Source: Raillietiella orientalis
Lineage: Eukaryota
Assembly (NCBI GenBank): GCA_036172245.1
Contig: JAYWIR010000093.1
Coordinates: 1 to 64,000 of the forward strand
Reading direction: 5' to 3'
DNA length: 64,000 nucleotides
Positions 2,546 to 48,800 of the stretch are shown piece by piece (position 1 is the first letter of the stretch; every line of letters starts with the position of its first letter). The translations under genes and the position numbers were made by a program. The notes under the pieces were generated by a model. That model was not told where the DNA came from, did no database searches, and was given only the letters and a program-made list of their open reading frames with translations.

Positions 2546-4060
2546 CACCCGGACACGCCGGGGCGTTTATTAAAACATTTCAACGGTGAGTACATCACGT
2601 GGTTTAAGGCATCACTAACGGCCAACATTTTGCAGGACCTGCCGGGATGCTGGTACGCAGAGCAGCATGACTCTACTCAGCAATGGAAGGGGCTGGGGGA
2701 AAAACAAAAAAAAAAATGGACCAGTAAACCAAAAAAAAAGTTTTTGGAGGGAACGGAAGGGATCACAGTCCACTGGGGGGAGGGTCCACCCTCAGCAGGA
2801 TACCCTCGAGGTTTTTCTTCAAGCTTCCCAGCTTGGGCCATCAAATACCTCTCCGCAGGAAGCGAACAGCATATGGGATGACGTCCGTTGCGGTGGAATC
2901 TTCATCTCCGGCTTTACCCCAGGCCGCCACAATACCACGGATACAGCAAAGTTCTGCGAGGGCTGCGGCTGGCTTCAGGGTGTCCAACACGAAAAGAATA
3001 CTGTAAACATTCCTGGGGTGTCCGCGAACCGGTATCCCGAAGGCCGTTCCAAGACTATTCCAAAGAATCCGGAGGGCCGGGCAGTCAACAAGAAGGTGGG
3101 GGAGGGACTTCCGCTCTCTACATCTGGCACACGCAAAATTTACACTTCCCCGCATCCAGTGAAAGCGGCGTGCGTTGCAGGGTAGACCTCAAGCAAGCCA
3201 CAAAAGTGCCGACTGTTGCCAATCCAGGGGAGGAATCCTCGATCCAATTAGAACCGGAGGACACTTCAGTTTGCCCGACCGGATGCCGAGCAGCTCGCCC
3301 CTTCTTTTTGATCCACGCGGCTGGGCACTAGAAGTCGTAGCGTCTGTCAGCTCTCCCATGGTCCAGCTGCTCATCATTTTCTCTCTGCCTGCGATACGGC
3401 AGCAGACTTGCCACCTCGGCTTCGGGCTGTTGTGAAGCGCCCTCCGTAGGAAGGCATCGCCGTAGCAAGGGGTGTCCCTTCCGCCCACGTGCAACTCGCT
3501 GGAAATTGAAGAATTTCACGCAGAGTGCGGCAAGCGTAAAAGCCGACGCTCAGGCAGTTTCACGTCTCGTGTTTCCTCTTATTAATCTTCGCCCACGTGC
3601 CAGCGGTCTCCTCCAGCCATGCGTAGTAATTGACGGGGCTGCAGACCATCCAGCCGTTCTCCTTTGCCAAGGTGGACATGCGTCCATGGAGCAGGCCTTA
3701 TTTTCTCATCCTTCGGCCAGAGAACAGGGGATAAGAGGCAAGTCTTTGCGTCCTGGAGACACGGCTGGCAAGAAGGCAGACCGGAACGCACCAAGGGGTG
3801 CTCCACAACTTCGCTGCTTTGTCCAAGGTGTGCTATCGCAACTGGATTACCAAGCGCTCCAGCGTCAGGAGACCATGACCAGCGTCCCAACGCAAAGCGC
3901 ATAATTGCTTTAGACGCATTCTAGGTCTCTTGTTGCGCTTGAGGACGATTGGTAGTAGGTCCTTGGTTCTCTTTTTCAACTAAGGGGAAACGCGGCATTC
4001 AAAAAGTAGAAGGCGAAGGATGGGAGCAGCGAGCCCGGCTGCGCGGGACTATCTACTTTC
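2546..4060 (-). mobile_element. LINE 3' fragment (ORF2 C-terminal region, zinc finger, 3'UTR, terminal hairpin)
   Basis: ORF 2841-3155(-) CARCRERKSLPHLLVDC..LCCIRGIVAAW; ORF 3189-3494(-) WQVCCRIAGREK..PPLDWQ; terminal motif at 2546-2571. Right boundary approximate. Confidence 0.88.
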
Positions 4061-13827: not shown

Positions 13828-14610
13828 CAGGAACCGTACCTAGGTGCAAGCTTACTGTGCTTCGGTGGTCGATCAGGCAGCGAAGCCTGACACGACCACC
13901 AGTCAGTGCCAGGGGAAGGCGGCAACGTCGCCTCCTGAGAAGATGGGGTACCAGGGGACGGCAGCAACGTCGCCCTCAGTGGAGGTGGAGGAGGGTACGT
14001 CCGCCTTCCCAGAATCGGTCACCGCTGCAGCGCGGGCGTAAAGCGCCGTCGTTTCGGCGCCATCGCTTGCAGCCGCGGCGGAATTGTCTGCCTATGTGAA
14101 GGAGGGCAACAACCCCTCACTGTTCTACAAGGTAGGCAATCTATATTATTCTGAGAGTGCGCGCCAATTCTCTAAAGGCATGCGCGTTCTCAACGTACAG
14201 GAGGAGAAGTTTTTCGCTATGACCATCCGTAGCGGGGGGCAGTACGGTGGAATGATCTACAAACAGGCAGATGTGGCCCAGCGTCTGCTCAAAAATTCCG
14301 TGGTGATGGGGACACGCAGGCTCCTTCTCATTACGGTGGAGCTGTTAGGAGTTACCGCGAGGATGAGGAAAGAGCAGGTACGCGCCGCGATGGAAGAACA
14401 AGGGACGGTCCATTCAGTGTGGACCAAGCCACGTCCTTCTGAGAACTATACTAGGCTTCAATGCGGCCTCATCGCTACAATCGTAACCGTCCGCGAGGTC
14501 TATTCCATTCCCCACAAACTGGTGGTTGGCGGCAAAAACGTCGACCTCGGGTATGTGGGGAATCCCAAATACTGTGGCTTCTGCAACACATCGGGCCAAC
14601 TCAAAAGGAA
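13828..14610 (+). mobile_element. Family A 5' fragment (ORF1 N-half)
   Basis: ORF 14084-14755 SAYVKEGNNPSLFYKVGNLY..PKYCGFCNTSG; AUG-region hairpin homolog at about 13864-13900. Confidence 0.88.
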
Positions 14611-16148
14611 AGCAGATTTAGGAGACCGAGACCGCCATCACAACGCAGAGTACTCAAGACCTTCAACAGAACTCAGGGTCTTACTTTACCTCAAAGGGCA
14701 ATTCTCAGAAGATCCTTCGTCCGTTTCTCCAACTCCCGAAGGACGGGACGATTAAAAAGCAGGAAACGGAGGATGAGAACTGCGAACGCATTCCACAACT
14801 CAGCCCGTTTTAAAAGGAGAAACTTGTCTTCCAGTAACAAGCCGATCGCCGTTTCAACTTTTTGGAGGCAGGCGGACCACGCTTGCGAAGGGAAATAGTC
14901 CCCCAACGGCACACCAAGGTACTTGAGGTACATCGCCTTGGGAATACCCAAACGGACCCAGTCCTGTTGCCCTGCGCGCGACGCAGCAACTGGTTCCACC
15001 GACGAATTCGCCCTATTCAAATGCAGTTCGGTCCCGGGGCTAAGCAGGTCGAAGAACCCCTCGAGAGCCGAAAAGGGGTGGACATAGGGAGCAGCAGCAG
15101 CAGGTCGTCCGCGTATGCCGATACCGCAAGCGTACCACGACAATCGCGTGGCAGGAGCGACAGAGTCTCCCTGTACGATCTCAGCACCAATTCGAAATAG
15201 GAGCTGAAGAGTAAGGGTCTCAGGCTCTTCCTGCCGTATACCGCGTCGCATTGGTACACCGTGCACGGTATGCCCGCTGGAAAAGACGTTAATGAGCGCA
15301 TCTCGCCAGCTGGAGCAAAGGTAGGCCAACAAGGAATCCGGGAAGCCCAAGTGTTCCAGAAGCTCCAGCAGGAGATTCTGGTCGACGGTGTCGAATGCTT
15401 TACGCAAGTGGACAGCGATTACAAAGGCTCCATCCCCCACCCTACCATACCGACTGCCACCGACGAACGCAACGGAATTTCGGTTGCTCAATAGGCCCCT
15501 TGCTTGTTGGATATCTAACCATGTGGAAGCGTGGAACAGGTTCGCGTCCATGCTTCGCCCGGGAACAGCATATGTCTGCTCCGGGCTGATGAAGGCGTTG
15601 ACAACCCGACCGAGCCGCTCTGCTCAAACCTTGGATAGCAACTTGGCGTCCGCATTCACAATTGTGATGGAATGCCAGTTGTTCGTGCACCTCAGGTCTC
15701 CTCCATTAGGCAGGAGCCGCACCTTTGCGGAACGAAAAGAGGCAGGAACGTCACCTGTCTCGCGAATCAGCAAAGTGAGCTGATGTACTGGAGAAGTCAG
15801 CTATGCCGCGAAAGTTTGATGAAACTTCGCGGGAAGGCCGTCCTCCCCTGGAGCCTTGAGCTTTTTGGGCTTTCGGATGGCCGCGATGATTTGGTCCATC
15901 GTGAAAGGCTCGTCAAGGCTCCTTTTCTCCTCCTCCCTGATCGCTGAAGCACCTTCCGGAAGCAAAAGTCGTGTGACATCCTGCTCCGGAGGCGCCCTGG
16001 GGTACAAGGGGTAGTAAAATTTTTTTACAATCCTGCGCTTCTGAAGAGGAACCCAGTGTTCTCGGCCCTGGACGTCCAGCAAGCTGGACGATATGGATTG
16101 ATAGGCTTGCCTCTCGGCTCCCGCTCGATACTCCGCTAACCTGCGCAA
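14611..16148 (-). mobile_element. Family A-like ORF2 RT fragment (pseudogenised)
   Basis: KAPGEDGLP (ORF 15801-16148), LRKAFDTVDQ and RRGIRQ (ORF 14691-15551), SAYADDLLL (ORF 15017-15301), KYLGVP; frameshifted. Confidence 0.92.
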
Positions 16149-20882: not shown

Positions 20883-22130
20883 CTAGCAGATACATGTAAG
20901 CAGGATCGAACGAGAAAGATCATCGCTTGTCTCTCTCATCAGCGACGACACCCTCAGTACTTGAGGGATGAACAGAGACGCGCAGGGCTGAGAAAACTCC
21001 GAAGGTAGTCCATATTTGTTCGGAGCCGACCGTCTCTTGGGGCTTCCCAAGGCAGAAAAGATTTCCACCGCTTTGAGGGGTTTGGCTCGACGCACACATT
21101 CATCCTCGTCAAAAGTAACAGCATCAGCGTGCAGAAGCAGCTCGGAGAGACTGCTTTCGGTCACGGCCTTCACAAACAACAAAAAAAGGTGAAATATTTC
21201 TACACAGAGCACGTCCTCTGGCACCGAGACTTTTCAGAGTTATTCATACAGCGGGCAAGCCGCTGGGGATTACTAAACCTGGCTCTGGAATATCGTATTG
21301 CACTACTCGACGGATGAATGTGAGTGCGTCTAAAGACATTTCGGGCTTGCAAGAATGCAAGCATTAACTCTTTCGATTAGCTGCACTCGTAAGTACCAAA
21401 GCAGGTGGACATTGAATTCGTTCGCACCCGGAATCGCGAATGTGAGACGAAAAATGTTGAGTCGGTGGCTCTGCAGTTTGCGAAAGAATCGATTTCTAGC
21501 GGCGCGCCGTTTGCAGTTACTGAGCGCGCACACTTTGGTTACGACGAGATCAATGCACTAGCACTACTTGCTAACTAGCTAGCCTACTCGCCCATCGTCG
21601 GCAAATCGAACAGCCCGCATCATTTCTGACACTCTGCCTTGCAAGAAGTACGCGATACCGCACGAACGTGCAGTGCTGCATCGAGAAAGTAGTATGCTGC
21701 GGAAGCGCTCTTTGATCTCTTCAATCTTTTTATCGGAGAGATTGAGAATCTACTGTAGAAATCGCAGTGAGAAGGGGCGCGGGGCGATGGCTGCAGCTCA
21801 ATTTTCTCTTCATTTACCAGCTTCAAAATTCTTTAGCCTACTGACGTTTTACTATTCCAGAGACAACAGACGAGAACACGGGAATCCCCGCATTCTTGCT
21901 GTACAAATGGTGGAGTATCTTCCGAGCGGTCTCTCGCCTGTGCACTTCACCCCGAAGCGCATCCACTTGAGCTCAGGGAACGCGCCTCGCAGCTCTACCG
22001 CCTGATACCGCTGCGAAGTGTAAGTTTCCAGGAAGTAATTCGCACTTTTACTGCCACGTGAATTAAGGAGGGTCTTTAGGTCGCTCTGTAGCATCCCTAT
22101 TGGAACCTGTTACCGGAACATCGTTTCCGG
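20883..22130 (-). mobile_element. Degenerate LINE RT relics
   Basis: TESSLSELLL..SAPNKYGLPSEF..SSLMRET (ORF 20883-21224) matches family C ORF 54450-54938; 21330-22130 is only weakly similar. Confidence 0.6.
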
Positions 22131-25100
22131 TGACGGCAACCTGAACGAAGAGCTCAATAATGACACCTGCCAACGAGGTGGCACGAGAATCATCTGAGCG
22201 AGTTTTCTTTTTTTCATCCTAAATTGTCGCTCAGCACTGCGATAGAAACATTACCGTGCAGCATTTATCCAAATATTTCTTTTTTTCCTTCCTTCACAAC
22301 CACACATCTTGCTCCAATTTTGTCGGAAACTTTTGCTTTGCATGACGCGAAGGGTTCTGACATTGCCTTTACGTCCACCTTAGGTCAGTAGTTTGCAGAG
22401 GTCTTCGAATCCTCCAACTACAAATCTTTATTGTATTCTTCTCCATCATGGCAGTATGTAGTCTGCTTTCTTTCTACGGAGTTGCGAAATGTCTGACTGC
22501 CTGCACCTTGATTGTATGTGAATTTTCGTTGTGATTGTGAGCTTTTGCAGCCGAAACAAAAGCTTCCTTCTTGTTGTACGTTGCAGAAGCCACAGAAATG
22601 TGCAGCAGAAAAACAAAAGTTGCTTTTTTGGAAGCGACATCCTCAATTCTATTCAATTCCGAGAATACTGGTGCTCGGTTGTGTTTTCGGCATCACCACG
22701 TATTTTCTCTGCGGGACGTCTTGTGCGACAAAGTCTCGTAGCCTCTGTTATTTTAAAAGTTCGGGACACATTTTCAGCGCTTTCACGTTTTCTGTAATAG
22801 AGGCATTCCACCGAAGGGAATGTAGGGCATTATGGCGACCGATGCTCTATTTGTGCACAAACGCTGTTTGAGCACACTTGCCTTAAGCATGAACGACCGT
22901 GCCGTTCACGTACAGCAGCATCGCTTTTCGTTCCACTGTCTCTCAGACGGGTGCAAGCCCGCAGGGATGGCAACGCTTTCGCCACTTCTGCTGGACGGTG
23001 GAGAAACCGAACATCACTCGCATGATGTACTGGTACGTCATATGCTTTTCAGTACCGAGGACATAAGTGTTCTCTAGTCGGTGTTTAGAAATAGGTCCAA
23101 CAAACGCTGAGCTGAGAGAGCGTCCTGAAGCACCAATAGCGAACACTTTTGGCAATTAATGGACTTGAAGGTTCCAACGGTGTTTTCCCGCATACTTACG
23201 CGCCGCCACTTGCGTAGAGTTGTCCTGTCAGATCGCAGAGAATAAAGGTAGCCAACGTCGTTCTTGAAGTGCGGGCTTGTAGCCATTTGCAACACGTGTA
23301 CGCAACATCAGTGCATCCGGATCCCCTCTGTGCACCTCTTACACATCCATGACGTAGAGACAATACCTTCCACTAATGAGAAAGTTTATCTCCTGGTCAT
23401 ATTAGGGCGTTCATTAAAAGCAAATCACTTGAATACAGAAGTTTTTAACCGACGATTATAGCAAACGAAGATAGGGTCCACTGGCACGTAAGCGGAGACA
23501 ACACAAAGTCATGAAAACAGACGAGGGACTACAGAACAATTAAAATAGACAAACTGGGTGGGAAGGAGTAAACAAATTCAATAATGGTCAGCGTGTATTG
23601 GGATCAATACAAAAAATATCAGGAAAGTTACGGAACGAATAGGGATGGAGTAGCAGAAAAATGATGGAAAAAATTAATGAAAAGAAGGGACAAGGATCAA
23701 CGGATCTGCAATTTGCACTCTTTCATCAACTGGAGGTTGATGTCATTAATTTCTTTTTCGGTTTTCTTTTCCAGCTGTGGCCACCTTTCATTCTCCCTAT
23801 TGTATTCGTCTACCAGCATAATGGCGTCCTGATAACTGTAATAATTGCTCCCGTCGAGCGTTTCGGTGCGAAAAACCACCGCAGTACGTCCCGGTCGGTG
23901 ACATCGTGCACAAATACTGTTGACACGCTGTACGCCGCAGATCACAAGGAACGCTGCAGTAAAGAGCCTGTTGCAGAATTGACTCCGTCGAACCGTACTC
24001 CACAACCTGGACAAAAAACGCACCTTAAACTCGACGACACCTCTCGTTTTACTGGAATCTCCATCGGATGAAGAGCAGGAAAGCCTGAGGTCATACGAGG
24101 GAGAACAAGGAACCTCCTACACAATCGGCAGCGACAACAAGTTGCTATAGGGGAAATCATTGGCCCTACCGTTTTCCGACATCCTCGACGCTTGAAGCCT
24201 ATTGGTTCCATCTACCTAGAGAATGAGAAACTGTTAAGAATGCGCCTTTTTCTCCTTCTGACTTCTCTTTATCACGCTTCAGCACGCAGTACTGTTCTCC
24301 TAACATCAATCTTAAAAAACTAAAGCCTCTGAAATCTTTTTCGGATCTCCAAGACCTGTCTTCTGGCGAATGTGGATTGGGACGTTTTTGAAACATTTAA
24401 AAACAGCGGCTGCTTTCCTGCAGTTGCGGTAAGCTTGGAGGAAATGTACGTGGTAGATCAAAGCTTTGCATTCTTTCCCTCGGATTGTTCCCTGCAATGG
24501 AATGTGGCACGGCAGCTTGAAGAATTCATGGTGATGTTTCAGCGGCCTTGCAACCCGTCGCACGTTGGCATCTTCCTGTCTATCCAAAACGGTGACGGGC
24601 GCGCACGCTCCATCAGCCATTGCAGGTTGCCGTTTCGCTGCCTGACAGACAGCGGTCGATTTACGTGTTGCTGACATCGATCTAAGTGGCGCTGTTCAAC
24701 CTGTCACTACAAGAATTCACCCTTTGATTCAGCTGCGCTGTTAAAAGCGTTACGTTACAGTTTGACGTAGTTACTTTCGTCACTGAAAGCCCCATCCTGC
24801 TGCATTGCGAATGACGAATCTTCCACGGTGGATACATGTTTTCTCTCCTTCACGCTGAACTCTGTGCAGAGCAAACGCTGAATGCAAGAAGAGTTTTGAC
24901 GAAAGGAAAACAAAATCGCTTTGGCGGAAATTGACATGGACGATTGAACTTTCTAGAGGCATACCTTAATACAGCGTGATTCGCGGCCGACTGCTTGGCC
25001 TACATCCCATGGTATTCTGCGGCCTATCCCAAACAGTAGCGTAGGACTGCAGCCGCGGATCACGTATGCCTAAACTGTGCACTCTAGGATGCCCCACTGT

Positions 25101-27114
25101 TCGCTGCTCTAGTGTCCAGAACGTCTGCAAAGCTTTTAGTCGGTAACGCCGAAGTTTAGCAAAGAGCGGTAGACAAGTCCACCATAGGAACGGTAAAAAT
25201 GGATTCCCCGATGGTTTCCTGTATAATAGACGGTTTTGGGAAATACAACGCACAAAAAAAACATTCGGAAAGCAGAAACATGGAGAAACAGAAAATTACT
25301 TGGATGCACGCAATTTGTCCGCTATCAAACGAGCGACACTCGTGCAGCCGGGTTCTGTCGTGGTTAACTGAGATCGTGGAAAAGTGGAATTCTGAAGCGG
25401 TAACACCTTGTTACTTCTAAGCGGACGGCTATCTCTTACAACGAACTCAGAAACTTCAGAAAGAGCTGTCTGACCCGACATTCCTCTTGGAAATGCGCCT
25501 CACGTAAGGCACACTAAGCTGAAGTTCTAAAATACATCACATTTTGCAAGAGTACAGGGTTGTTCCTTGATCCTGCGTCTTTTCCGTGCATATCTCCATG
25601 TTTCTTACTCCTTTCCAGGAGAACTGAATTCTTGGAAACAGAGCAACGTGGAAGGACAGTAAAATTCCTGATACTGACAAATGTTTATGGTCCTAGGGCA
25701 ACCCGTTTAGGTTCCAACAAGCTATGGGCGAGCGGCAGGAAGAGGCAAGGCTGCTTATTACTGGCCGTATGTGTAAGGGGACAACATACGTTACCTCCGC
25801 ATTCCCGAAGGATCGAAATTTCGGATGCTGGCAAGTCGTTCTTTCACTGTGAGCGTTTCAATCTGCAGCATCACTCAACGAGGCGACCCCCTTTTGATGA
25901 GTTGTGGTCGCCGAATTCTATTATCATTATGTTCCCATTCAGCTCTGCTGTTGTGCTGCTCGTGACTTTGGAAGTGGCAAGAAGTTTTTAGCACCAAGGA
26001 ATCCTTCTTGTTGCGCCCTCTTTTCGGTCGCTTGCATCATATCAGAAGTGACGACTAGCGCAGCGGCATCGTTACAGCATTCCGGATTGCTTTTCTAACC
26101 TTGTTGTTCGGTATTGTACGATGTGTATTCTGTAATCCACAAATAGGTGATCAGCGTGTCTTCTTGGCGCGCGGATCTCTACTGTTCTTGATTTTCTCGC
26201 TGCTTCATGCTGCGACGCTCAACTTGCGCCCTTTTGAAAACGCTGGACGATTACACGTAATATTCGCTTCAAGATTGGTACTCGTCTTTCAGAACCTGCA
26301 TTTAAAATTTGTCTGCTATATACCTTATCTCAGAAACCAGATGTGAACGTTGCAATGATCGACATTACATTTCCGAGGGTACACGCGACTCTGCAGGCCT
26401 GCTTCAAAGTACGTCGAAGAACTCCTAAAAATGTTTTTGTCGTGATACGAGAATGTATGATACAGAGAACCTTCAAGGAATCAAGCTGCTTGTCAGATAC
26501 CTGTCATTGCACAAGAAGCGTTTTTCGTTGGAAACTAGCTTGCCATGCCTCAGCTCCAAAATATCTCACAGCAAGAGCTGAAGATTTCTCCACTTCCCAA
26601 GAGGACCTCGTACTTCTTCCCAAATAGCAGCAATCAGAGTTCGTAATATAGAAATTTTCACTACCATGCTTTGCACCGATTCCGGACGAAAAGAAGCCAA
26701 AATTTTACCGCTGCAGCTTCCTAGAGAAAAACATTTGTTTTCATCTAGAAAAAGTGCCAACAAGTAGGCATGATTGGGACGTTTTCCGGAGTCCCACTGT
26801 TCTTCAGTTGATATTCCCTCAAACATCTCATGGCAGCTTCCGGTAAAGAGTGGCAAGTACGCAGTTGCCACCGATGCAGTGCTATGTTGTCGAGTAAATG
26901 CTTCCGCCTCTGCAAACGATGCAGATTGGAAACACTTAAAATAGGGGTCATTGCCTGCGTCGGAAGCCTTGTGGTAAATGCTTCCGCGCGTGGCACCATG
27001 CGTCGCGGGATCGCTTACTCTGGAAGAAACTGTCGCAACTGCGTCGTTGGGTTCAGAGTTTCTCCTGCAATGGCGCTGCTTGGCCGAGACATTCGGGCGT
27101 GAACCGATGGTGGT

Positions 27115-27983
27115 TTAAGCTGGAGACCCGTGATGAAGGCCGGAACAATGGGAGTCGACCTTCGGGTCCTCCCAGGGATCCAAGGAGTGAGGAGTTCCCC
27201 CTCCGGTCGTACAACGGATAGCGGATCCCGTTAGCGGGGGCCCTTTCGGTTTCAACATGGAGCAGGAACCTTTGCGGGCACCTCTCCTAGTTGTTTGATG
27301 GAGCGGACTCTCCTCAGCGGGGGTTACCCTCCTAGTTGTCGCCTCTTCACAGAGTGCAAGACTGCAAGAAAGCAAGCGAGAGCGATTTCCTGCGGGAAGC
27401 TACAATATCCCTTATGAGTTTCAGAAACGTCCCTTCGGGGTTCTATTCAGAGGAGTGAACAGGAGCGGTTCCCTTGAGGGTTCCCTCCTGAGAAGAATAT
27501 TCCTACTAGCGGATCCTTTCCGGATTCCATTTGGAGAAGTTTAAATGGAGAGGACAGCCCCTCTCCATTGGGGGGTGTCCCTTCGGAGAGAATGAGGAAG
27601 GATATTCCCTTCAGGGTTCTCCTTCGAAGACAACAAGGGTGGGAGGTACGATCCCCTAAGGGATCCCCCCATGCGTGAGATGAATAGACTCTGAGCCCTT
27701 CCTGGATTCATAGGGCGGAACCCTTGTTCTAGGGTGCCCTATCCTGAAGAAAAGAATTACGCCCCCTTGCCTTAGGCAGAGAGGCGTGGAAACAAAACTG
27801 TGTTCAAAAGGGCCACGAGCGCCGCGAGGCACGCGACCGGCTCTTGAGTCTCACTTAGCGAACGAAAACAAGAAAAACCCGAAAAACAAACAAACCAAAA
27901 AGAACCCAAGGATTTCCATCATCCTAGGCCAATAGTAACGATCTCCTCGCAAAATCGCTACTGGCATTTAAAAAAAAAAAAAA
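27115..27983 (+). other. Hairpin-dense non-coding segment with A/C-rich linker and A14 tract; candidate structured RNA or retroposed element
   Basis: At least 12 short stem-loops including UUCG, UGCG and GCGA tetraloops on the + strand; no ORF of 60 aa or more on +; A14 at 27970-27983. Confidence 0.5.
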
Positions 27984-28369
27984 TTGGGGTCATCTGCTTT
28001 TCTATCCGGTCGCTCAGGTATGCAGTTGGGTAAAGAAACGAATAGATGGGTCGAGCTGGAATCCTACACAGTTCGCAGAAAACTCCGACACGCAGGATGT
28101 GAATGCGACCCTTTCCTTCTCCTTTTCGGTTTCACAACACCGTTTCCGAGTATTTTTTCTTGTGTTTGAAAACCATCATTTATTCTCGGCGAACGCCTTT
28201 CCTAACATGATGGATGCTCTTAGCGATCGTTGCAGATTGCGGACTCGATGCAGCTAGAACGTTTGTTTCCGTCTAGCAAAAATACGCTCCGCTCCACTGG
28301 AGTGAAAAGGAACACTAAGCGAACGGAATTTTTCTCTAATGTCCTTAGAGTTATACTGTGGACACAATT

Positions 28370-31300
28370 ATAGGGTATCTGTCTTTGTTCTTAGAATGCT
28401 ACTCAGCCAACTCCTATCCGTCACCGGGGGGCCCTTGGCATATTGCACGAAAAATGACATGATCTCGTTGCGGATGAACCACAGAAATTGAGTCTGCGGA
28501 AATTCATTTGGTGTCATCGTCATTTTCTTGACAGTAGTTTCAAGTCTCTTCAACTGAACTGTTGAATGCATGAATCCTCCATCCTGCATTATTTTCTTGG
28601 TTTCTTCGCAACGATTTCTCAAAATTTCCTGGCTAGCAACACTGTGCCTGCTATCGGTTTCCACAATGCATGATGCACTCTCTACCATTCCCATCGCGTA
28701 TATGCAAAAACCACTTTGTATGGAAATCAGAAAGCATCTTACTTACAAGAGAATGACAAAATAAAACCATTGCTTCCTTAGATTCAATTCAGAAGGAGGA
28801 TGTTGAATAATCTCATGCTTCTAACGAAGGTTCTGTTTGTTTGTTATTGCGTTTCTTCGATGACGAGCTCTCCGACAACGCAAACACTCATTCGATTTTG
28901 TTTCGAACGTGTTCGTATTTTTCAATGTTGGTTTTGTTTGATATGCATCTCCGATGGACGGCGGATGCCACCCGTTGATAGGGCCTTCTGTGTCTTCTCT
29001 AATGGGAATCATGGTTCTTGTAAATTCTGAAGGCAGGATGTAGACGTGTACTCCCAGAAAACTGTAATGTTCGTGAAGATACTCAACAACGGCTTTTCAA
29101 TATCTTCCTTTTCATCGTTTGCAAAGTTGCTTGGACTTTGTTTCGGAATTCGTTGTGCGATTTTGCAATGAATGAATGATCATTATGAATTTTTGATGTT
29201 TTTGTTCCCGTGGAGGTTGATAAGCCGTTATATTTACACGTATGGTCAATCTCCATTTAACCAGTGAATATATTTTCGTTACTAGATTTGACTGAGTTCT
29301 TGGAGAATGTATACATTCCTCGATTTGATTTTGGTGCCGTAGTAGATATCAGAGCCTCTATTTTATCCTCAGGATGAAATCATTCTTGCTGTCAAATCTT
29401 GAGGATTCCGAAATGGTTGCCTGTGTGAGCAAGCAGTAATGCTAAAAACTGTTTATGCCTCGGTACACACGAAAGAGCAAGTCCATAATGAAGCAATGGA
29501 GAAAACAGCAACCTCAAATAAAGCCTGCGTCGCAAATATTCGCAACATCACGTAAATTTTGCTTACTACTGCTCACATTGTGAGAATTCGTGTCACCTTT
29601 AAATGCATTTGTCTCCATGGAGATGATGCAGAAAGAAGCTCTCGCTTTGATATTTGGATTTATTGTCAGTTGCTTGCAGTGATCTGGAAATAAAGCTAAA
29701 GTACTGACAACTGTCCAGTCGGTGCCGTTGAAGCAGATTGAAAGCGGTTGCAGGCTTTTTAATTAATGTGTGTTTTATTATTCTATGGTATTTGTGAAGC
29801 ATATGGCTGACTGGTTGAAGCCAGAATACGTTCAGGTCATTCGAGCATCCAAAAGTGACTGGGATTACTCTCGTGCAACTGTCCGCAGGGGAACAATGGA
29901 GTTTATTAACAAGACCTTCTGAATTGTTCAAATGCTCCTCGCAGTTGTACTGCTCTTTTTAATACATGCGAATGATCTGAAGACTGCGATGTGAAGTTGA
30001 CGTACAATTGCAAAGCGCGGAGATCTCAGAATCTGCGACAAGTCTTACGCATTGAATGCAAGACTCTGATGCTGCTTTCTTGGAGGACGTCTTGCAGATA
30101 GGACAACCGGTTTCGAAATAGCGAATGCATGTTCTCAGAGCAAGAGAATAGGCGACATTCTGACTAGTTTCGGAGTCTCAGAGTACAGTTGACGTTGAAA
30201 GTGAACGACTCACTCGATCATTCAGTAGCCTCTTCTCCAGAACAGTGTACGTGGCGTTTTATTCTTTCTAAAGCTTCCTTTAGAGATGCCAGCTAAAAAG
30301 TCACTCATAGTTCTATAGCTCTCAGTGAGTCGACAGGGCAACAGAGCCGAAATAAAAGTTTTTCATTCATTTTTGGTCATTACAAAGCTATGGTTTGAAT
30401 GGCATTGGAGAATTTTCCGCATTTTCCTCTCTGCAGTTTTTAAACTTTGAAAGTGTTCGGTCATCTTATTACTTTATAATCACAGATATTAAGTTATCTT
30501 ATGGCTATATACAAATCACTAAGCACGGTATGGTTGCAATATTTACACCAGTGTGCAGTCTAACAAGGAACAGACGATAAGTGACACGTCGAAACCTCGG
30601 AACATTGATACTCCGACAAACGGTGTGAAATCTCAAGAGCAAATGTTTGCCTATGAGCTACACTTCCAGGTCAGCCAGTAGAACACATGAAAAGGAAGGA
30701 AGTTGAAATCAAGAAAGCATACAGGTACAAACTTATAGGATATGAAAAAGCCAGAACCTGTGATTGCCACTGCTAGGAGGGCATTAAAGAGCTTTTACGT
30801 ACATGCATTTATTATATTGCATGCAAGGAAGAATACTTTTAACACAAACCGCAAAGCTATGAAATGAAGCTGTGTATGCTAAAACAGAAATTTTTGCCAA
30901 CTAGAAAACCCTTACTGAGAAATGTCCTAAGCAAACCGTAGCTTCTCGCAAGCAGTGCAATATAAACCAATAGGAAGAAAATGGAAATTCCATACGGTTG
31001 CGTTCTAGTGGGGTAATAGAGATAGCAGGAACCAGTGATCTCACAATATAAACAAATATCCATGGTTCCAGGAAACTCGACTACCTAAAATTAAAAGGAA
31101 ACATGCAATTTCGAAAACGCTCACTTACAAATAGCTCCGCAATGCACGAACACGGCTTTCCGGAATGCCCACGGATATTTACAGAGATTTGACAAAATCC
31201 AGCTCTGTTGTCAAAGGTATATTTACAATTACCTAAAGGGAGATGAAACCCAATCACATGTGGCAAAGATTTATACACAAAGGAAGTGAAGTTGTTTCCA

Positions 31301-36516: not shown

Positions 36517-38234
36517 ATGCCTGACGCGACCACCAGTACGTGTCAGGGGGCGGTGGCAACGTCGCCTCCTAAAGAAATGGAGTGCCAGGTGGCGGCGACA
36601 ACGTCGCCTCTAGAGAAGGTGGAGTGCCAGGGGGCGGCGGCAACGTCGCCTTCAGTGGCGAAAGAGGTGGGGGCGTCCGCCCCCACAAAACCGGTCCCCG
36701 CTGCAGCGCGGGCGTGGAGCGCCGTCGTGTCGGCGCCATCGCCTGCAGCCGCGGCGGAATTATCTGCCTATGTGGAAGAGGGGTATAACCCATCACTATT
36801 CTACAAGGTAGGAAATTTGTATTCATCTGAGAGTGCGCGCGCCTTTTCGAAGGGGATGCGCGCTCTCGATTTTAAAGAAGAGGAGCTCTGCGCTATGACC
36901 ATTCGTAGCGGGGGGCAGTACGTAGAGGTGATCTGCAAACATAGAGATCTGGCCCAACGTCTGCATAAAACCCCCGTGGTAATGGGGACACGCAGGCTCC
37001 TTCCCGTTACGGCGAACCACAGTATGGTGGTCCACCTTTTAGGAGTAACCGCGCGGATGCGGAAAGAACAGTTACGCGCCACGTTGGGAAAAGAAGGCAC
37101 GGTCCATGCAGTATGGACCGAGCCTAGTCCTTTCGAGGACTATACCACAGTTCAGTGCGGCCTTACGGCTGCCCGTGTAACCGTTCGGAAGGGCTCTACC
37201 CTTCCCCACAAACTGGTGGTCGGCGAAGAAAGCGTCGACCTCTGGTACGTGGGGAAGCCCAAATACTGTGGCTTCTGCAAAACGTCGGGACACCTCAAAA
37301 GGAGGTGCCCAACGTACAGTGCCTGGTATGCGGGACAATGGGCCACACGAAGGAAGTGTGTCCACAATCCGCTGTGCGCGTGGTTTCCGCGAGGAATCTA
37401 AAAAAACGCGCGCAACTGCTTCAGAAAAAACTGGCGGCGAAGGCTGCCGCTCAACCTGTGCCACCCACTCCCGTGGTCCAGGCCTCAGCCGACAGCACGG
37501 CAACGAATGCCGAAAAGATTGACAAAAGCGGTCAGGTGTTGGAATGGCAAGAAGTCACAGCGAAAAAGAAAAAAGAGTCGAAGAAAGAACGACGAATCGA
37601 AAAAAAGCTGGCCTACCAAAATAAAAAACAGCAGGTTAGCGAGAATTTAAAAGAATGCAGCGTCGTCGTGGAACGCGTGCCCGCCGAACGCCGCAAGGTA
37701 GAAATCGCTGCCACCGACGAGCAACCCACTGTTGAAAATGTCAACAGCGTGGGGAGCGAACCGGCGGAAGCATCCGTCATCGAGACCGTGATCGATGACG
37801 CCGCATTCGAGCGTGCGGCGGAGGAGCTGGCTGCATCGTTGCAGCCAGACCCCTCCAAGGCTGGCAAAAAGGCAGTGAGGCGTCCGGCCTCCACCGAGGA
37901 GTCGGTAACTTCCGACCCCGAAGCGCAGGCCGGAAACCAAGTTTCCATCTCCGCGGCACCCCGCCGGAAGGCTGGAAGGAAGTCCAGCAAACCCTGGAAA
38001 GCCCCTCTCCAGGTCGAAGGCGTGGAGATCACTTCCGACTGCGAGGGTGCCATGAGCGTGGGAGAATCCCGGGAATCGTCACTCGAGAGACCACCACGCA
38101 CAGACACGGAGGAGATGGAGGGGGTTGAAGCCGGAAAGGTACCCAAGGTGCCTGAGGAGGCTGAAACCCTAATGGTCATCTCACCCGCCTCGGAAGAGGC
38201 GGGTTCCCCCACACCGTCATCTTTCCGGCAGTAA
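36517..38234 (+). pseudogene. A1 ORF1, gag-like nucleic-acid-binding protein with two CCHC knuckles; frameshift near 37306
   Basis: CGFCKTSGHLKRRC and CLVCGTMGHTKEVC lie in different frames; 1-nt deletion relative to the copies at 43080 and 60330; basic then acidic low-complexity C-terminus. Confidence 0.9.
36541..36666 (+). repeat. Three 42-bp tandem repeats in the ORF1 N-terminus
   Basis: Units start at 36541, 36583, 36625: CQGAVATSPPKEME / CQVAATTSPLEKVE / CQGAAATSPSVAKE. Confidence 0.9.
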
Positions 38235-41200
38235 TGCCGGGAATCTCCTCCCGCCGTCGTCTGCGCATCGCCGTTTGGAACGTGAACGGCATGACAGACG
38301 CCGGCAGGAGACGAGACATGGCCGCCATTCTAGGATCGTTCGACCTTGTGCTGCTGCAGGAGATCCATGTGATCTCTGCAGAACAAGCGCAGGAGATCGA
38401 ACGCATCTACGGAGGGCGGCTGTGGTATCGGTGTGGAACATCGAGAAGCTGTGGTGTCGCCTACCTGCTTCGTCCCGCCATCGAGGCCGCCGCCCGTGGA
38501 GTTCGGTTCGAAGATCACGGTCGTGTCGGCCAGCTGACTCTCAGCTGGTCGCACTCGATCGACCTGATCGTTACGAACGTTTACGCCCCGAGCGGAGCGG
38601 ACCTGACGAAAAGGAAGGCCAGGAAAGAATTTTTCCTTGCCCTCCATCGCGACTGGTTGACCGAGGCAGGCGTGCGGAATGCCCATCTGGTTGCGGGCGA
38701 TTTTAACGTTCGTCTGAAACTGGACGGGCCGAATGACGAGCATGACCTGGTCAACGAGGTGTGCGCGGCGGTGCACACCTGTAATTTGTTGGCCAGTGTA
38801 CCAGGGATGGAGGACAACACCGATCACGTGTTCCTTGACGAGCACCAGTGCACTCGTGTGGGCAGGCGCTGCAAGTTGTTGTGCGAGTTGTCCGACCATC
38901 GACCAATCGTGATTGAAATCCATCCGCGCGACAGGGCCCCCCCCTCGTCAGCGTAGCGTTTGCCAGGGGACCGGCTGAAGCTCCCGGACTCGACGGAACA
39001 TCTCCGCACGTTTATACGGAGCTTTAGGATGCAGACACTTCAGGATTCGGACCGCTTCAAACGGTCGGTCCAGGAGTTCTGCGACCAGTTCCCTCTGCAC
39101 CGCCTACCTGCGGGATTTGGGGACGGGGTACGTAACGAACGAGCCTATCTGCAGGCTTGCCGTTACGCCAGGACCCCCGACATCCGCAGGCTGGCGGAAT
39201 ACAAAGCGGGAGCCGAGAGGCAAGCCTGGCAGTCAGTATCGGCCAGCTTGCTGGACGATCAGGGCCAGGAGCATTCGGCACCCGCTCAGATCCGCGGTCT
39301 GCTGCGGCGTTTTTATTCCTCCCTGTACGCAAGAACGACTCCCGAGCGGGATTTCTCACGAATCCTGCTTCCGGAAGGCGCTCCTGCGATCGGGGAAGAG
39401 GAGAAAAAGTCCCTCGACGAGTCTTTCACGATGGGCGAGATCATCTCGGCCATCGGAAAGCTCAAGAGGCGAAAGGCTCCAGGGGAGGAAGGCATGTCCG
39501 CGGAGTTTTATCAAACTTTCGCGGCTGAGCTAACCCCCCTGGTACATCAACTCACCTTGCTGATACGCGAGACAGGTGACGTTCCCGCCCCGTTTCGTTC
39601 GGCAAAGGTGCGGCTTCTCCCTAAGGGAGGAGATCTGAGGAGCATGAACAACTGGCGTCCCATCACAATAGTGAATGGGGATGCCAAGTTGATAGCTAAG
39701 GTTTGGGCTGAGCGTTTGGGACGGGTTGCAAACGCCTTTATCAGCCCAGAACAGACGTATGCTGTTCCGGGGCGAAGCATGGAGGCGAACCTGTTCCACG
39801 CTTCCACCTGGCTAGAACTCCAACACGAAAGGGGCTTGATGCGCACCGGGAATTCCGGTGAGTCCGTCAGTCATGCGACGGATGGTCGGATGGGTGAGGG
39901 AGCACTTGCGGTCGCTGTCGACTTGCGTAAAGCATTCGACACCGTCGACCAGAATCTCCTGCTGGAACTTTTGGAACGCTTGAGCTTCCCGGCCTCCTTA
40001 TTGGCCTATCTGCGCTCTAGCTAGCGCGATGCGCTAATCAATGTTACTTTCAGCGGGCAGACCGTGCATGGCGTACCGGTGCGACGTGGAATCCGGCAAG
40101 GAGACAGCCTGAGCCCCTTGCTCTCCAGTACCTACTTTGAGTTGGTACTGAAAGCGTTCAGGGAAACTCTGGCGCACCTGCCACATGAATGCGCCGGAAC
40201 GCCTGCGGTTTCAGCATATGCGGACGACCTCCTGCTACTGCTCCCTATGTCCACCCCGGCTTCGGCGGTCGAGAAGTTCTTCGACCTGCTGAATCGAAGA
40301 ACCGGGCTTACGGTAAACAGTGCGAAGTCGTCCGTGATGCCAGTTGGTGCGGCGTGGGCAGGGCAGTAGGACTGGGTCCGTTTGGGGATCCCCACGGTGA
40401 GGTACTTCAAGTACCTTGGTGTGCCGTTGGGGGACTACTCCCCTGCGGAATCGTGGTCCCGCTGCCTTCAAAAAGTAGAGACGGCTATCGGCCCGTTCCG
40501 AGGCGGCAGGTTTTTCCTGCCTGAACGGGCCGCGGTTTGGAACATGTTCGCGGCTCCTCTCCTCCGTTCCCTGTTGTTTGTTTGCCCCCCCACAGAGAGG
40601 ATCAAAAAGCGGACGTAGGACCTCCTCCGTATCGCCCTTTGGGGCAACGGGAGGCCCCGAGTCCGCCTGAAGGACTTGTGCGCTCCGCGTCGGGACGGTG
40701 GTCTCGGCCTCCTGACATTGGAGCGGCTGGAGCTGCAGCTCCAGTTCCGGATTTTGGCACTTGTGCCGGAGTTGTGGTGTACCTGTTGGTGCGTCCCTGC
40801 ACGTCTCCTCCTTCTGCAAGCCACCGGCAAGACGGGACTTACGTCGTTTCTTGCACTCCATCGAAGCCGCATCAACCGATGTGGGCTTCAGCTACGGAGG
40901 GTGGCTGCGCTGACTAGGAAAAATCAAGGATGGATCACTTGTCTCCCCGCGAACGGTAGTGCCTGGTTGCAGGAAACCGTTCGTACGTGGGGACAGTTCG
41001 GCATGCAACCCTCCCATCAGGAATGAAGGTTCTTGTTTGGGTGTTACAGAAGTTGCACGCTCCGTGAGATCCTGGAGGATCCTAAGAAGAGAGCGTGGTC
41101 AGGAAGAACCCCCCTCGCTGCTGCGCTGGGCTCCCTAGTAGAACATCAGGACAGCGATGTTGCGGCGAAGTGAAAGGTTACAATAAAAATCTCCGGGAAG

Positions 41201-41818
41201 GAGAAGAAGCAGAGAGAGTGGAAGACGAGCCAGCTAACTGATGCTGCGTCCCCGAGTGCGCCTCCTAATGGACTTCTGCGCTGGGGAGCGCTGCTGGATG
41301 TTCCGATTGAACATCTGAAGTGGCCCCCGATTCTTATGAACACTTCCATCCTCCCCCTAAAATGGCAGGAGTGGGCATTCCTGTTGCAGCACTGGGGACT
41401 CCCCTGCAACGCCCGTCGACACCACTGGACCTGGGGAGTGGTGGATCCCAATTGTGTAAGGTGCGGGGAACGGGAGTCCCTCCCCCACCTCCTAGTGGAT
41501 TGTGTTGCCCTTCGGCCCCTTTGGTTCCGCTTTGCCGCGGCCATCGGTATCCCTTGCGGCAACCCCAGGGTCGCACTAAAAGCCTTCTTCGTTGCCGACG
41601 CCCTGCGGCCAGCGTCCTCGATAGCAGCCTTGTGCAGCCTTCGTGGGATCGTCGCCGCCTGGAGCACGGCGACGGGAGGACCTAGCGATCAGGAAGCCAA
41701 CCAGTGCGCCTCCGAATTCCTGAGGAGGGCGTCGCGATGGCCCCACCTGGATGTTGACAACAAACAAGAGCTTGCCAGCATCCTGAGAGGGATGATGCGG
41801 CCCCAGCAGCAACAGTGA
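38234..41818 (+). pseudogene. A1 ORF2: APE endonuclease, reverse transcriptase, C-terminal zinc finger; several premature stops
   Basis: WNVNG, LQE, GDFN, SDH; KAPG, NWRPIT, KAFDTVD, GIRQGDSLSP, YADD, KYLG; CVRCGERESLPHLLVDC. In-frame stops end at 38956, 40024, 40369, 40618, 41026. Confidence 0.95.
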
Positions 41819-42010
41819 TCCCTTCCCGTTCCCTCCCACCCTTTGCTTTTTTTTTTTGTTTAGTTTTTTTTTGTTTTTCCCCTTTCCCCTGCTGCCTTAG
41901 TGGACCGTACCGGTCTAGAAACCGGTGAATTGGCAGCCGCCGTGGTTCTTAGCTTCTGGCTGGAGCATTGCCACAGCCATTAATAATTTGTTTACAAAGT
42001 TTATTTTTTT

Positions 42011-42041
42011 AATAAACGACCCGGAGAAATCCGGGTGAAAA
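42011..42041 (+). terminator. 3'-terminal AATAAA plus CCCGG/CCGGG hairpin (element 3'-end signal)
   Basis: aataaa-cga-cccgg-agaaat-ccggg-tgaaaa; equivalent motif at nine other element ends. Confidence 0.75.
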
Positions 42042-42055
42042 TCGAAAGCTTTACG

Positions 42056-43434
42056 TCGGCTAGAGCGGACTGGTTTCCTCGGTGCTCCTCGTGCCGGGAA
42101 CCCTCCCTAGGTGTAGGCTTCGTGTGTGGTGATGGTCGATCAGGCAGCAATGCCTGACACGACCACCAGTGCGTGTCAGGGGGCGGTGGCAACGTCGCCT
42201 CCTGAAGAAATGGAGTGCCAGGTGGCGGCGGCAACGTCGTTTCTAGAGAAGGTGGAGTGCCAGGGGGCGGCGGCAACGTCGCCTTCAGTGGCGAAGGAGG
42301 TGGGGGCGTCCGCCCCCACAAAACCGGTCCCCGCTGCAGCGCGGGCGTGGAGCGCCGTCGTGTCGGCGCCATCGCCTGTTGCTGCGGCGGAATTATCTGC
42401 CTATGTGGAAGAGGGGTATAACCCATCACTATTCTACAAGGTAGGAAATTTGTATTCATCTGAGAGTGCGCGCGCCTTTTCGAAGGGGATGAGCGCTCTC
42501 GATGTTAAAGAGGAGGAGCTCTGCGCTATGACCATTCGTAGCGGGGGGCAGTCCGTAGAGGTGATCTGCAAACATACAGATCTGGCCCAACGTCTGCTTA
42601 AAACCCCCGTGGTAATGTGGACACGCAGATGCCTTCCCGTTACGGCGGACCACAGTAAGGTGGTCCACCTTTTTGGAGTTACCGCGCGGATGCGGAAAGA
42701 ACAGTTACGCGCCGCGTTGGGAAAAGAAGGCACAGTCCATGCAGTATGGACCAAGCCTAGTCCTTTCGAGGACTATAATACAGTTCAGTGCGGCCTTACG
42801 GCTGCCCGTGTAACCGTTCGGGAGGGCTGCACTCTCAAGGAAGAGGTTCGCGCCGCGTCGGAGGAATATCGTACGGTCCACGCGCAGTAGTCCAAAGTTA
42901 CTTCTTTTGAGGACTACACAAGGCTGCAACACGGACTCACGGCTGAAAGCGTGACCGTTCGAAAGGGCGGCACTCTTCCCCACAACCTGGTGGTCGATGG
43001 CGAAACCTTCGACCTATGGTAAGTGGGCAACACGAAATACTGCGGCTTCTGCGATACGTCGGGCCACCTCAAAAAGAGGTGTCCCAACGTGCAGTGCCAA
43101 GTATGCGGCACAATGGGGCACACGAGGGAGGTGTGCTCAAAAGCAGCAGTGCGGGTGGTTTCCAAGAGAAACCTAAAAAACGCGCCCGGCTGCTGCAGAA
43201 AAGGCTGGCGGCGAAAGTTGTCGCGAAAGCTGTGCCACCAGCGTCCAAGGCCTAGGCCACATTCGAGACACCAGCGAACAACGGCGAAAAAGACGAAGGA
43301 TCCGGTCAGGAGATTGGATGGCAGGTGCCAGAGGCCAAAAAATCAAAGGAAAGAAGGTTGGAGAAAAAAATCGTCTACCAACCGAAGAAGAAAGAGCACG
43401 GTAGCGCGATAATTAAAGAGTGCAGCGTCGTCGT
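42056..43434 (+). mobile_element. Family A copy A2: 5'UTR and partial, chimeric ORF1, tandem to A1
   Basis: ORF 42126-42890 is nearly identical to A1 ORF1; internal duplication at about 42837; knuckles CGFCDTSGHLKKRC and CQVCGTMGHTREVC. Confidence 0.93.
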
Positions 43435-45827: not shown

Positions 45828-48800
45828 GCCGGTCGCGTACGGACGTGCTTTTGCGTCGCTCCGTGGTAGACTGACTCTTGTGAGTTTCTGTTCCACTGTG
45901 CTTCTGTGCTGCTATGGGAGCAAAGAGGAACATCAGCCGCAAGAAGGGAACGGTACCTGATCCTGAGATGGTGGTTTTGGCTGCTAGCCGGGAGCCACTG
46001 TCCTCGCTGACGGCGAGGACGTTCTCCCAGGTCGCTGTCCTCGCGGCTACAATGGGACCTTCGCCCGATAGCCCTGAGCTGCAAGCGTATGTAGCAAATG
46101 GCTACACGCCTGCATTCAGGTATAAGGTGAGTATCCTTATACCTGAGCGGGTTGGGCGCGATTTTGTCCAGGAACTCAGACGGATTAGAGTTCAGAGAGG
46201 CAAGCTGGAGTCCATCATGCCCATGAGTGGGTGCGGCTACTGGAAGGTGTCCATTAAGGACGCTCTTCTTACGCAGCGTTTGCTGCACACGCCGCTGTTC
46301 ATTCGTGGGCAGGAAATACTCCCCATCACAGCGGACCAGTCGTTCGTTGTCCGGCTGAGTAGAGTGAGAAAGGGCCTTTCGTACCGCCAGGCCGCGGAGG
46401 CCCTTGAAAAATTCGCCACCGTTCATGCGCTTTGGAAGTTGCCGAACCTTGCTGAGGGTTTGGAAGACCACCACAGCGGGGTCGCGCTGGTGCGAGTGAC
46501 GATGGCGGATCGCCGGGCAATGCCCACGAGACTGCAGGTGGATGGAATGACCGTCCGCCTGTGGTTTGCAGGGCAAACCCTTGTGTGCGCGGAATGCGGT
46601 CAGGAGGGTCACCGCCTTACGAAGTGTCCTCGGCCGCTTGCCGTTACTGCCACGAGCCCGGGCACACAAAAGAGACGTGCCCGGAGCTCCTTTGAAAAAA
46701 CGAAAAGCGCAAGAAGGAAGCGCGTTTCGCATCACGAAATAAACTCCGCGAATCGTGGGAAAAAAACCTCAAAACTTCGGAGAGCGTTGCGAAAACCGCA
46801 AACGCGCCTGCGCAGAAAACTCTTCCTATCCTCCACAAAAAAGGGGAGAAAAACATTAAAAAAAAACGCATCTCGGCGGAGTCTCTGGCTACCGAGCCGA
46901 AGGAAGCTCGCGAGCAATGCGAGATCTCACCGAAACCTCTTAGCGAAATTTTCAATGCAGGAGAGAGTGCGCCGGAGGGCAAGAAGCCTCCTACTGTCGG
47001 CATCACGACCGCGAATCCTCCTATCAAGGCCTCGGCAAGTGGCGAGGAATGCAATCGCTCGCCTGAAATGGGCAAATCGCGCCCGCGGGCAAAGTACTCC
47101 GTGCCGGCTAACCCTACTGCGGCCAAGATGCCTCCGGCGCCGAGTGCCGCGACGAAACAGCCGGCAAACCCGCAGCCCTCGCGCGCGGACGCAGCGCCTA
47201 CTGCGGCCAAGGAAGAAACTGCTAGAGCGAACACAACCGCTACAGCAGTGCCCCTGCGGTCGCAAAGGCAACGCGCGAATCCTCCCGTCTGCAAGAGGCA
47301 GCGCCATTCGCGATCGCTAAGAGAGTCGCTTACGACTGCGCGGAGGCAGCACTTTAAGAGGCAGCCATGGCAACGCCTTTTACAGCCGCGGGCGCAGCGC
47401 CATCTCAGGAGGGCAAACAACTGCGACGCGAAGAAAGACGGCTGGATACAGGTGAGAAAGGTTATTAAAAAAAAACCGTCAAGGTCCTCGCAGCTCTGTG
47501 TGAAGGTGAGTGGGCAAAAGAAACCCGCGAAACCATCCCAAAAAAAGATTGCGATCCTTTCCTTCTGTGCAGTCGTCCTCTCGCGGATGGAGCGGAAAGC
47601 TGCTGCTGCAGCTAAAAGGACGAAAGTCCCAGCCGCAGTAGCAGAAAGCGCTAAGAAACAGGCAGCAAATGATTCCTGGAAACAGAAGCAGCGCCTGGCA
47701 AGCGCTCGACTGTCGGATTCTGATCCAGAGTTCGACAGAATGAGCACACAGCGCGAAACCCGTCCGAAACCGCGCAATCGCCTCCCGAAGACCCGCAAGC
47801 GCGTTGTTGCCGAAGAGGAACTGTTGCCGGGGAGCAAAGAGGAGGGAATGGGCCTCACCTCTGAGCTACCGGCAACAAGCAGGGCGGCTTCGAATGGAGA
47901 TGTCCAGTCTCCAAGATTTGCCGTTCTGTCTCGTGACCACTCGCCGGACATGGCGAGAAACCTGTGCTCAACTTCCCAGCCTTAATGCAGGAAGTCGCCT
48001 CTCTTCGTCGGTTCAGCGTAGCCTGTTATAACGTCAACTTGCTGCGCAGGGACGAAAAGAGGCGCGGCGTGTCAGACACCCTGCGACACTCCGACTTGGC
48101 GATCCTTCAGGAGATGCATCACATCTCCGACACGGAGGTTGCCGAAATTGAACAGCGCGCGGGTGGCACCCTGTACTGGCGAGAAGGTTCTGCACTATCG
48201 TGCGGAGTCAGGTTTGTCGTTAATAGTGGGATAACGGGAGCGGTGCGCAGCGTTCGATTCGACCAGGAAGGGAGAATAGGCCATCTTGTACTGAAGTGGT
48301 CAGATTTAATCGACCTCGTCCTGACGAACGTCTACGCGCCGAGCGGCTTTTATCGGCGCGCCGAAAGAATCGAGTTCTTCGACGTGCTGGAGAGCCAATG
48401 GCTTAGGAACTTTGGAGCCGGAGTGGCACATCTCGTCGCAGGGGACTTCAACGTCCACCTGCTTCCCAACGAGACGCGGTCCCTGGCGGAACGGTCGCGG
48501 ATGGAATAGGCATGCGGGTCGGTGCACGCGCGTAACTTGGAAGCCGGCGAGCCTGGACTGGAAAGGTGAGTGGATCACGTCTACCTCGATGAACACCTAC
48601 TCCCACGAGTGGGAATGAGAGGCAGGGTGCCGTCTACGTTATCGGACCATGATAGGCTGGAGTTCGAGCTACTCCCGCCGGGCAAGGGACCTCCAAACAA
48701 TGTTTGGAGGATGTTGCCGGATTGGCTGAGTCACCCGGAAGCGGCGGAGCATCTTCGCCAGTTCCTTCGCGGCTTTGCCATCCGGCAGCTCGCAGACTAG

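Follow-up and report, generated by a model that had tools for sequence, protein, structure and literature searches.

A hairpin-rich, A-tailed segment of the Raillietiella orientalis genome as a probable copy of a long, non-coding, SINE-like retroposon

Is a segment of animal DNA that is packed with small tetraloop hairpins and ends in a pure run of 14 A the copy of a large folded RNA, or did it arise in some other way? The segment occupies positions 27115-27983 (869 nt) of the window, that is, of the whole stretch of DNA analysed here: 64,000 nucleotides, positions 1 to 64,000 of the forward strand of contig JAYWIR010000093.1 in the Raillietiella orientalis assembly GCA_036172245.1. A preliminary description had read it as a large structured RNA without kin in its surroundings. 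Base-by-base reading of the sequence from 26600 to 28500 found all 12 stem-loops listed in that description in their places on the + strand, together with the A/C-rich linker (27860-27905, +; A4-5 runs at 27865, 27873, 27882 and 27897) and the A14 tail (27970-27983, +). From 5' to 3', the stem-loops comprise a bulged stem TGGGAG/CTCCCA around GACC-TTCG-GGTC (27149-27174), GGGATCC/GGATCCC (27175-27229), CCCG-TTAG-CGGG (27227-27238), CTCT-TCAC-AGAG (27343-27354), TTCC-TGCG-GGAA (27387-27398), CCC-TTCG-GGG (27431-27440) and CAGGAG...CTCCTG around CCC-TTGA-GGG (27460-27490). They continue with a 10-bp stem (27544-27569) that has a rival pairing GGACA/TGTCC (27552-27580), then CCC-TTCA-GGG (27607-27616), GATCCC-CTAA-GGGATC (27650-27665), ACCCT/AGGGT (27720-27735), ACGCC/GGCGT (27759-27787) and GCC-GCGA-GGC (27821-27830). 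An exact-stem scan independently recovered the perfect stems, including the 10-bp stem at 27544-27569.

Small hairpins are enriched here, to a limited degree. Counting merged hairpin centres with a stem of at least 4 bp and a loop of 3-6, the hairpin-rich body (27080-27860, +), the part with local self-similarity maxima at lags 40-45 and 83-84, holds 23 hairpins against 11.7 +/- 3.1 in dinucleotide shuffles, an excess of about twofold that none of 500 shuffles reached. The segment as a whole has 25, a count that 23 of 333 equally long background windows also reach (mean 15.7 +/- 5.5), and 9 tetraloop hairpins whose stems have 4 bp or more (4.4 +/- 2.1), matched by 12 of 333; these counts place it in roughly the top 4-7% of the 64-kb window for small hairpins. 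Stems of at least 5 bp were not enriched (6 versus 8.1), and the hairpin centres showed no periodicity, with 178 of 500 shuffles reaching the top power.

Several of the hairpins recur because one short unit has been repeated. Alignment on the + strand between 27427 and 27691 delineates five clearly homologous units of 40-46 nt, starting at 27427, 27467, 27511, 27603 and 27649, plus a diverged piece at 27553-27602. Each unit pairs a short hairpin with a GAGAAG-type spacer, and the five have TCCCTTnnGGGTTC in common within the aligned pattern G..TCCCTTnnGGGTTC.....GAGAAG... (40-46 nt). At least five hairpins and two broken ones (27408 and 27578) are copies of a single unit, which leaves those at 27149-27174, 27227-27238, 27343-27354, 27387-27398, 27544-27569 and 27720-27830 unaccounted for. 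The string TCCCTTNNGGGTTC occurs exactly at 27430, 27470 and 27606 and at no other place in the 64-kb window. With up to two mismatches allowed, the window has 16 matches where 5.8 are expected, a number reached by none of 100 shuffles, and 8 of the 16 fall within 27240-27665, seven of them on the + strand and the eighth a palindromic overlap at 27650. A profile (HMM) built from the five best units finds those five and, weakly, 27241-27267 (E 1.9), with no match elsewhere in the 64-kb window better than E 1.7. In the autocorrelation of 27115-27860, the highest value is at lag 41 (0.311 versus 0.252 +/- 0.017 for that lag), followed by lags 43, 44 and 40; taken over all lags, this maximum is weak, since 32 of 300 shuffles reach 0.311 at some lag. 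Locally, lags of 40-45 or 83-84 score best between about 27080 and 27720, but not in the flanks. TRF reported no array in 26500-28500 apart from an 8-nt repeat of 2.4 copies.

Folding energy does not set the segment apart. As the preliminary description had anticipated, the segment folds better than its own shuffles (20 per strand; z -4.63 for the + and -5.02 for the - strand), but this effect is symmetric between strands and is matched by control DNA. With a 12-shuffle script, the segment scored z -3.17, and 5 of 12 evenly spaced 869-nt control windows were as low or lower (-3.32, -5.97, -6.65, -6.95 and -8.75; mostly LINE DNA). LINE DNA in this window thus folds far better than its own shuffles, so fold z alone marks no special RNA here. 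Over 200-nt windows of the segment, + strand z ranged from +0.16 to -2.53, beside a background mean of -0.68 (sd 1.5; 219 windows, up to position 21,800). In fold energy, the segment is no outlier within the window. The LINE-rich control windows, each scored with 12 shuffles, are themselves worth recording: z -8.75 at 38000-38868, -6.95 at 14000-14868, -6.65 at 46000-46868 and -5.97 at 42000-42868.

The preliminary description had proposed covariation among paralogs as a check, and the repeated units show none. Across seven sequence-homologous hairpin units, the covariation score was 0.109 versus 0.122 in shuffles, 281 of 500 of which reach the score, and a structure slid by one column pairs equally well (65.3 versus 63.3%). 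In these seven units, the inner CCC/GGG pairs are merely conserved; the next stem positions form A-T or T-A pairs in the unit at 27649 and T-T mismatches in three other units. When four hand-picked 5' hairpins were added to the seven units, covariation rose to 0.397 versus 0.194 (0 of 500 shuffles), a test that is circular, since those four had been picked for being hairpins and aligned on their loops. Equal fold z on both strands and the lack of covariation among units leave no evidence for constraint at the RNA level.

Searches against Rfam 15 at gathering thresholds found no match to any family in the 64 kb, introns, ribozymes, tRNA, 7SL and 5S included. At E ≤ 10, the interval 26500-28300 returned three chance-level matches, none of them to tRNA, 7SL or 5S; the single one inside the segment scored 16.2 bits against a threshold of 38.2 (E 7.1). 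ARAGORN predicted no tRNA gene in the region or in the whole window. A pattern of two consecutive units had no match in viral contigs. A metagenome scan with the same pattern yielded 25 loci, several of them lying in 12-nt microsatellites, which we judged unrelated; compared with the element, they showed only matches of 20-32 nt around the pattern. The viral, viroid-like or organellar origin that had been floated therefore gained no positive sign from Rfam or from the unit pattern in viral contigs, which counts as a weak negative.

A functional structured RNA, or a copy of one (viral or viroid-like, a piece of an organellar intron, or a new non-coding RNA) with its hairpins under selection, is accordingly the explanation that we find hardest to credit. 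It would account for the hairpin excess (0/500), for a fold z of -4.6 and for the two-sided pair changes that appear once the four hand-picked hairpins are included (0.397 versus 0.194, 0/500), the last in a circular test. Weighing more heavily are the minus strand, which folds equally well; the 5 of 12 control windows that fold as well or better; the missing Rfam match and the unit-pair pattern unmatched in viral contigs; homologous units that do not covary and whose outer stem positions have decayed to T-T mismatches; and the slid structure and unenriched stems of at least 5 bp. The proposal of a large structured RNA was not supported, given strand-equal folding, matching controls (5/12), no Rfam family, no covariation between units and several hairpins that recur through repetition of one short unit.

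Coding capacity offers no other identity for the DNA. The longest stop-free frames in the element span 81-94 aa. A Pfam search with 15 frame pieces (25.5-29.1 kb) at E ≤ 1 returned three chance-level matches, in two pieces that lie outside the element. When 63 pieces of at least 40 aa were compared with the rest of the window, four matches of 20-29 aa resulted, none from the element. One longer frame, of 182 aa on the minus strand (26566-27114), runs across the 5' junction described below and was rejected as spurious: it has no Pfam match, and none of 74 candidate homologues (among proteins of 100-319 aa) reached E ≤ 0.01. At the DNA level, blastn (word 9) and nhmmer searches of 26400-28600 against the 64 kb recovered the sequence itself and three words of 15-20 nt. 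Within the window, the segment is thus an orphan, as first described, and is likewise unrelated to the surrounding LINEs, with no DNA or translated similarity to any in the window.

Position 27115, where the segment had been taken to start, does not coincide with a natural end of the unit, which starts at 26952, so that its first 163 nt had been left out. Self-blast revealed a target-site duplication on the + strand, with a 5' copy AAAATAGGGGTCAT at 26938-26951 and a 3' copy AAAATTGGGGTCAT at 27980-27993, the first four A of which are shared with the A14 tail; the two copies are identical at 13 of 14 positions. Duplication and tail together define the whole retroposed element as 26952-27983 (+), a non-coding stretch of 1,032 nt including A14 and 1,018 nt without the tail, with 55% G+C. 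The upstream copy is embedded in CTTAAAATAGG, so that the site reads TT|AAAA; the TTAAAA itself lies at the insertion point (26936-26941, +), where the nick would fall TT|AAAA. This is the preferred, classical target of L1-type endonucleases. Within 24000-27969, GGGGTCAT has a single occurrence, at 26944, and hand arithmetic puts the chance of a 13/14 match below about 0.01, allowing for 14 bases at the tail, 3 kb upstream and a few registers. G+C content is 0.52-0.58 in the hairpin-rich region and 0.41-0.47 in the flanks. Of the origins first suggested, that from a retroposed non-coding RNA is supported: the A14 tail and the 13/14 duplication at TT|AAAA mark a reverse-transcribed copy.

This 5' end is open to one objection, a 14-nt direct repeat, GTAAATGCTTCCGC. 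Its two exact copies, 80 nt apart, lie in the 5' flank (26894-26907) and in the element (26974-26987) and so span the proposed junction, with some further similarity after the repeat. In a comparison of the element with its flanks it has E 0.52, nothing else matches, and it is probably due to chance. The idea that the element landed in an older copy of its own family was dropped, the comparison having returned only this 14-mer (E 0.52). Separately, at 28108-28140 (+) in the 3' flank, 125-160 nt beyond the tail, TCCTTTTCGGTTTC and its surroundings resemble 27239-27257 of the element (13/14, E 3.8), a likeness that is probably also fortuitous.

The window also contains the kind of machinery that leaves such marks. 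A LINE copy at 38165-41815 (+) carries endonuclease (38165-38953), reverse transcriptase (38957-40021) and zf-RVT (41174-41815) similarity in successive frames, the endonuclease being of the APE type (Exo_endo_phos, 2e-13 at 38165-38953); the layout is that of the L1/Tx1 type, interrupted by frame changes. The Exo_endo_phos, RVT_1 and zf-RVT matches in the LINE frames of the window imply that the enzymes needed exist in this genome. Two side observations concern these repeats. The 5' part of the main LINE family contains 2.7 tandem copies of a 42-nt G+C-rich unit, at 36540-36651 and 42173-42284 (TRF scores 166 and 154), with weaker arrays at 13906-13989 and 59609-59683; despite the same period, a profile of these subrepeats has no match in 26952-27983 even at E ≤ 100. 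Furthermore, 2680-2800 (+) and 41800-41900 (-) have in common an A-rich stretch, GGGGAAAAACAAAAAAAAA..., followed by GGAGGGAACGGAAGGGATCAC, which looks like an internal part of a repeated element and not a tail.

Could the element itself be a piece of a LINE? A 5'-truncated 3' end with a long 3' UTR, inserted by the enzymes of its own family, a family with no other copy in the window, would carry the same tail, 14-bp duplication and TT|AAAA site. 5' truncation is what most commonly befalls LINE copies, and a stem-loop directly before the tail would suit such an origin: at 27928-27965 (+), GCCA/TGGC and GTAACGAT/ATCGCTAC (7 of 8 pairs) form a terminal stem-loop that appears in part in the predicted folds of both strands. 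Yet similarity to reverse transcriptase, endonuclease or zinc knuckle is found in no frame of 26952-27983, nor does any LINE within the window resemble it at the DNA or protein level. A non-coding 3' region of 1 kb is long for a LINE, and the promoter-like boxes at the very 5' end, described next, would be a coincidence at a random truncation point. We regard this origin as unlikely, if still deserving of consideration.

Near its 5' end, the element has a weak look-alike of a Pol III-type promoter (26964-27018, +; motif match). An A-box-like AAGCCTTGTGG at 26964 (2 mismatches) starts 12 nt from the 5' end, and a B-box-like GGATCGCTTAC at 27008 (3 mismatches) follows 44 nt later, start to start. 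Measured against the A-box and B-box consensuses, both are loose; 44 nt is the start-to-start box spacing in tRNA genes. Equally loose pairs number 32 in 128 kb (both strands), and about 0.0075 would be expected in the first 30 nt on the right strand by a post-hoc estimate. The element head gave no cloverleaf fold. The 1,018 nt contain 13 TTT and no TTTT run, against 3.8 TTTT in shuffles, 10 of 1000 of which have none; T4-free stretches of at least 900 nt are nevertheless not rare, the + strand of the window having 12, most of them within LINE DNA. The first TTTT past the element, in the flank at 27998-28001 (+), 14 nt beyond the tail, is a possible Pol III stop. No AATAAA or ATTAAA is present in the last 84 nt (27900-27983), which hold only a TTTAAA overlapping the tail.

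These 3'-end features also bear on another conceivable origin, in which LINE enzymes made a single processed retrocopy from a cellular transcript of Pol II, such as a lncRNA or a long 3' UTR. The single copy within the window, the tail and duplication, and the failure to match any known RNA family are all as that origin would have it. It sits poorly with the want of AATAAA or ATTAAA in the last 84 nt and with the T4-free sequence, unexpected for a Pol II transcript of such composition (10/1000 shuffles), and the internal tandem units and A-rich linker resemble a mobile element instead. We consider a Pol II retrocopy distinctly improbable, more so than a truncated LINE.

Taken together, 26952-27983 is probably, though by no means securely, one copy of a long, non-coding, A-tailed, SINE-like retroposon, known from this single copy. 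Its source RNA would have been made by RNA polymerase III from the weak internal A/B-type boxes near the 5' end and would have run to a T run in the flanking DNA. The resident L1/Tx1-type LINEs may then have supplied the endonuclease and reverse transcriptase that captured the A tail; these enzymes would nick the site at TT|AAAA, use the tail for priming and thereby produce the 14-bp duplication. Most of the small hairpins would have arisen incidentally, through duplication of the unit and through short palindromes rich in G+C, and not through selection for a tertiary fold. An earlier element may have left its worn tail as the A/C-rich linker, in which case the linker and the 64-nt 3' piece may represent an old tail and a carried-along flank. 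Counted against the SINE-like reading are the one copy within the window, the absence of a tRNA, 7SL or 5S head and the loose, post-hoc boxes; its length, the mere five homologous units, the non-periodic hairpins and the commonness of T4-free stretches weigh on the same side.

A bolder version of the SINE-like reading would make the element a member of an active family of ~1-kb Pol III-type retroposons, with a body formed by a chain of ~42-nt hairpin units kept by compensatory change. Instead of being debris of duplication, the chain would have a function, for instance as a platform to which an RNA-binding protein encoded by a LINE attaches, and would have its period in common with the 42-nt subrepeats of the resident LINEs. 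Pointing toward it are the 5' hairpins, which differ in stem sequence yet pair, as seen in the circular test. A pure A14 and a 13/14 duplication also make the insertion look young, so that the source element itself may already have had worn units. We rate this version as very improbable.

By itself, the element matters little, being another non-autonomous retroposon copy in a LINE-rich animal genome. If its family proved abundant and Pol III-made, it would be of modest importance: the known length range of SINEs would extend beyond 1 kb, and the tandem-repeat cores of SVA-type elements would have a counterpart in an invertebrate. The analysis also counsels caution with this genome, in that a fold z of -4 to -5 against shuffles is non-discriminating here, values of -6 to -9 being attained by LINE DNA of this window.

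How does the element compare with known SINEs? SINEBase, in the account drawn on here, defines a SINE as an interspersed repeat of <1 kb, with at least 100 copies and a Pol III-derived head, a body and a tail, and gives consensus lengths of 75-662 nt for 175 families (PMC3531059). At 1,018 nt without its tail, the element falls narrowly above the <1 kb limit and beyond the longest of these consensus lengths, 662 nt (PMC3531059). Of the features of a SINE, an A-rich tail and retroposition marks are present (A14; 13/14 duplication). Like the A-tailed, tRNA-related SINEs moved by L1 as that account presents them, the element is non-coding, ends in an A tail and sits in a duplicated, A-rich target site (PMC3531059). 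It likewise shares with tRNA-related SINEs a body of unknown origin, the absence of an internal T4 and putative, loose A/B-type boxes at tRNA-like spacing, and differs from them in lacking a recognisable tRNA, 7SL or 5S head (ARAGORN; Rfam at E ≤ 10). A full-text literature search brought up, among the papers it listed, none describing a SINE built from tetraloop hairpin units. A comparable design is that of the quasi-oligomeric SINE CHRS, the body of which is described as a degenerate motif of ~20 nt repeated more than 10 times (PMC3531059). By that description, both bodies consist of degenerate short units in tandem (PMC3531059), whereas the unit here is 40-46 nt long, includes a hairpin and is still recognisable only five times.

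A second parallel lies in the SVA, LAVA, PVA and FVA elements of hominoids, which are moved by L1 and contain a central array of 30-50-bp G+C-rich repeats; in the portion of the source used here, its authors speculate that this VNTR array shapes RNA secondary structure (PMC4432496). In that source, the SVA type is transcribed by Pol II, has an Alu-like domain and a SINE-R or other 3' domain, and is restricted to hominoids (PMC4432496); the present element comes from a different host animal, lacks such domains, with no 7SL/Alu match, and has no AATAAA or ATTAAA before its tail. Its five 40-46-nt units, in DNA of 55% G+C, are also far more decayed than the VNTR, and TRF detects no array. As far as that source describes the SVA type, the two designs nonetheless coincide in being non-autonomous and, on the reading preferred here, LINE-dependent, in having a tandem G+C-rich core and in ending with a poly(A) tail between target-site duplications (PMC4432496).
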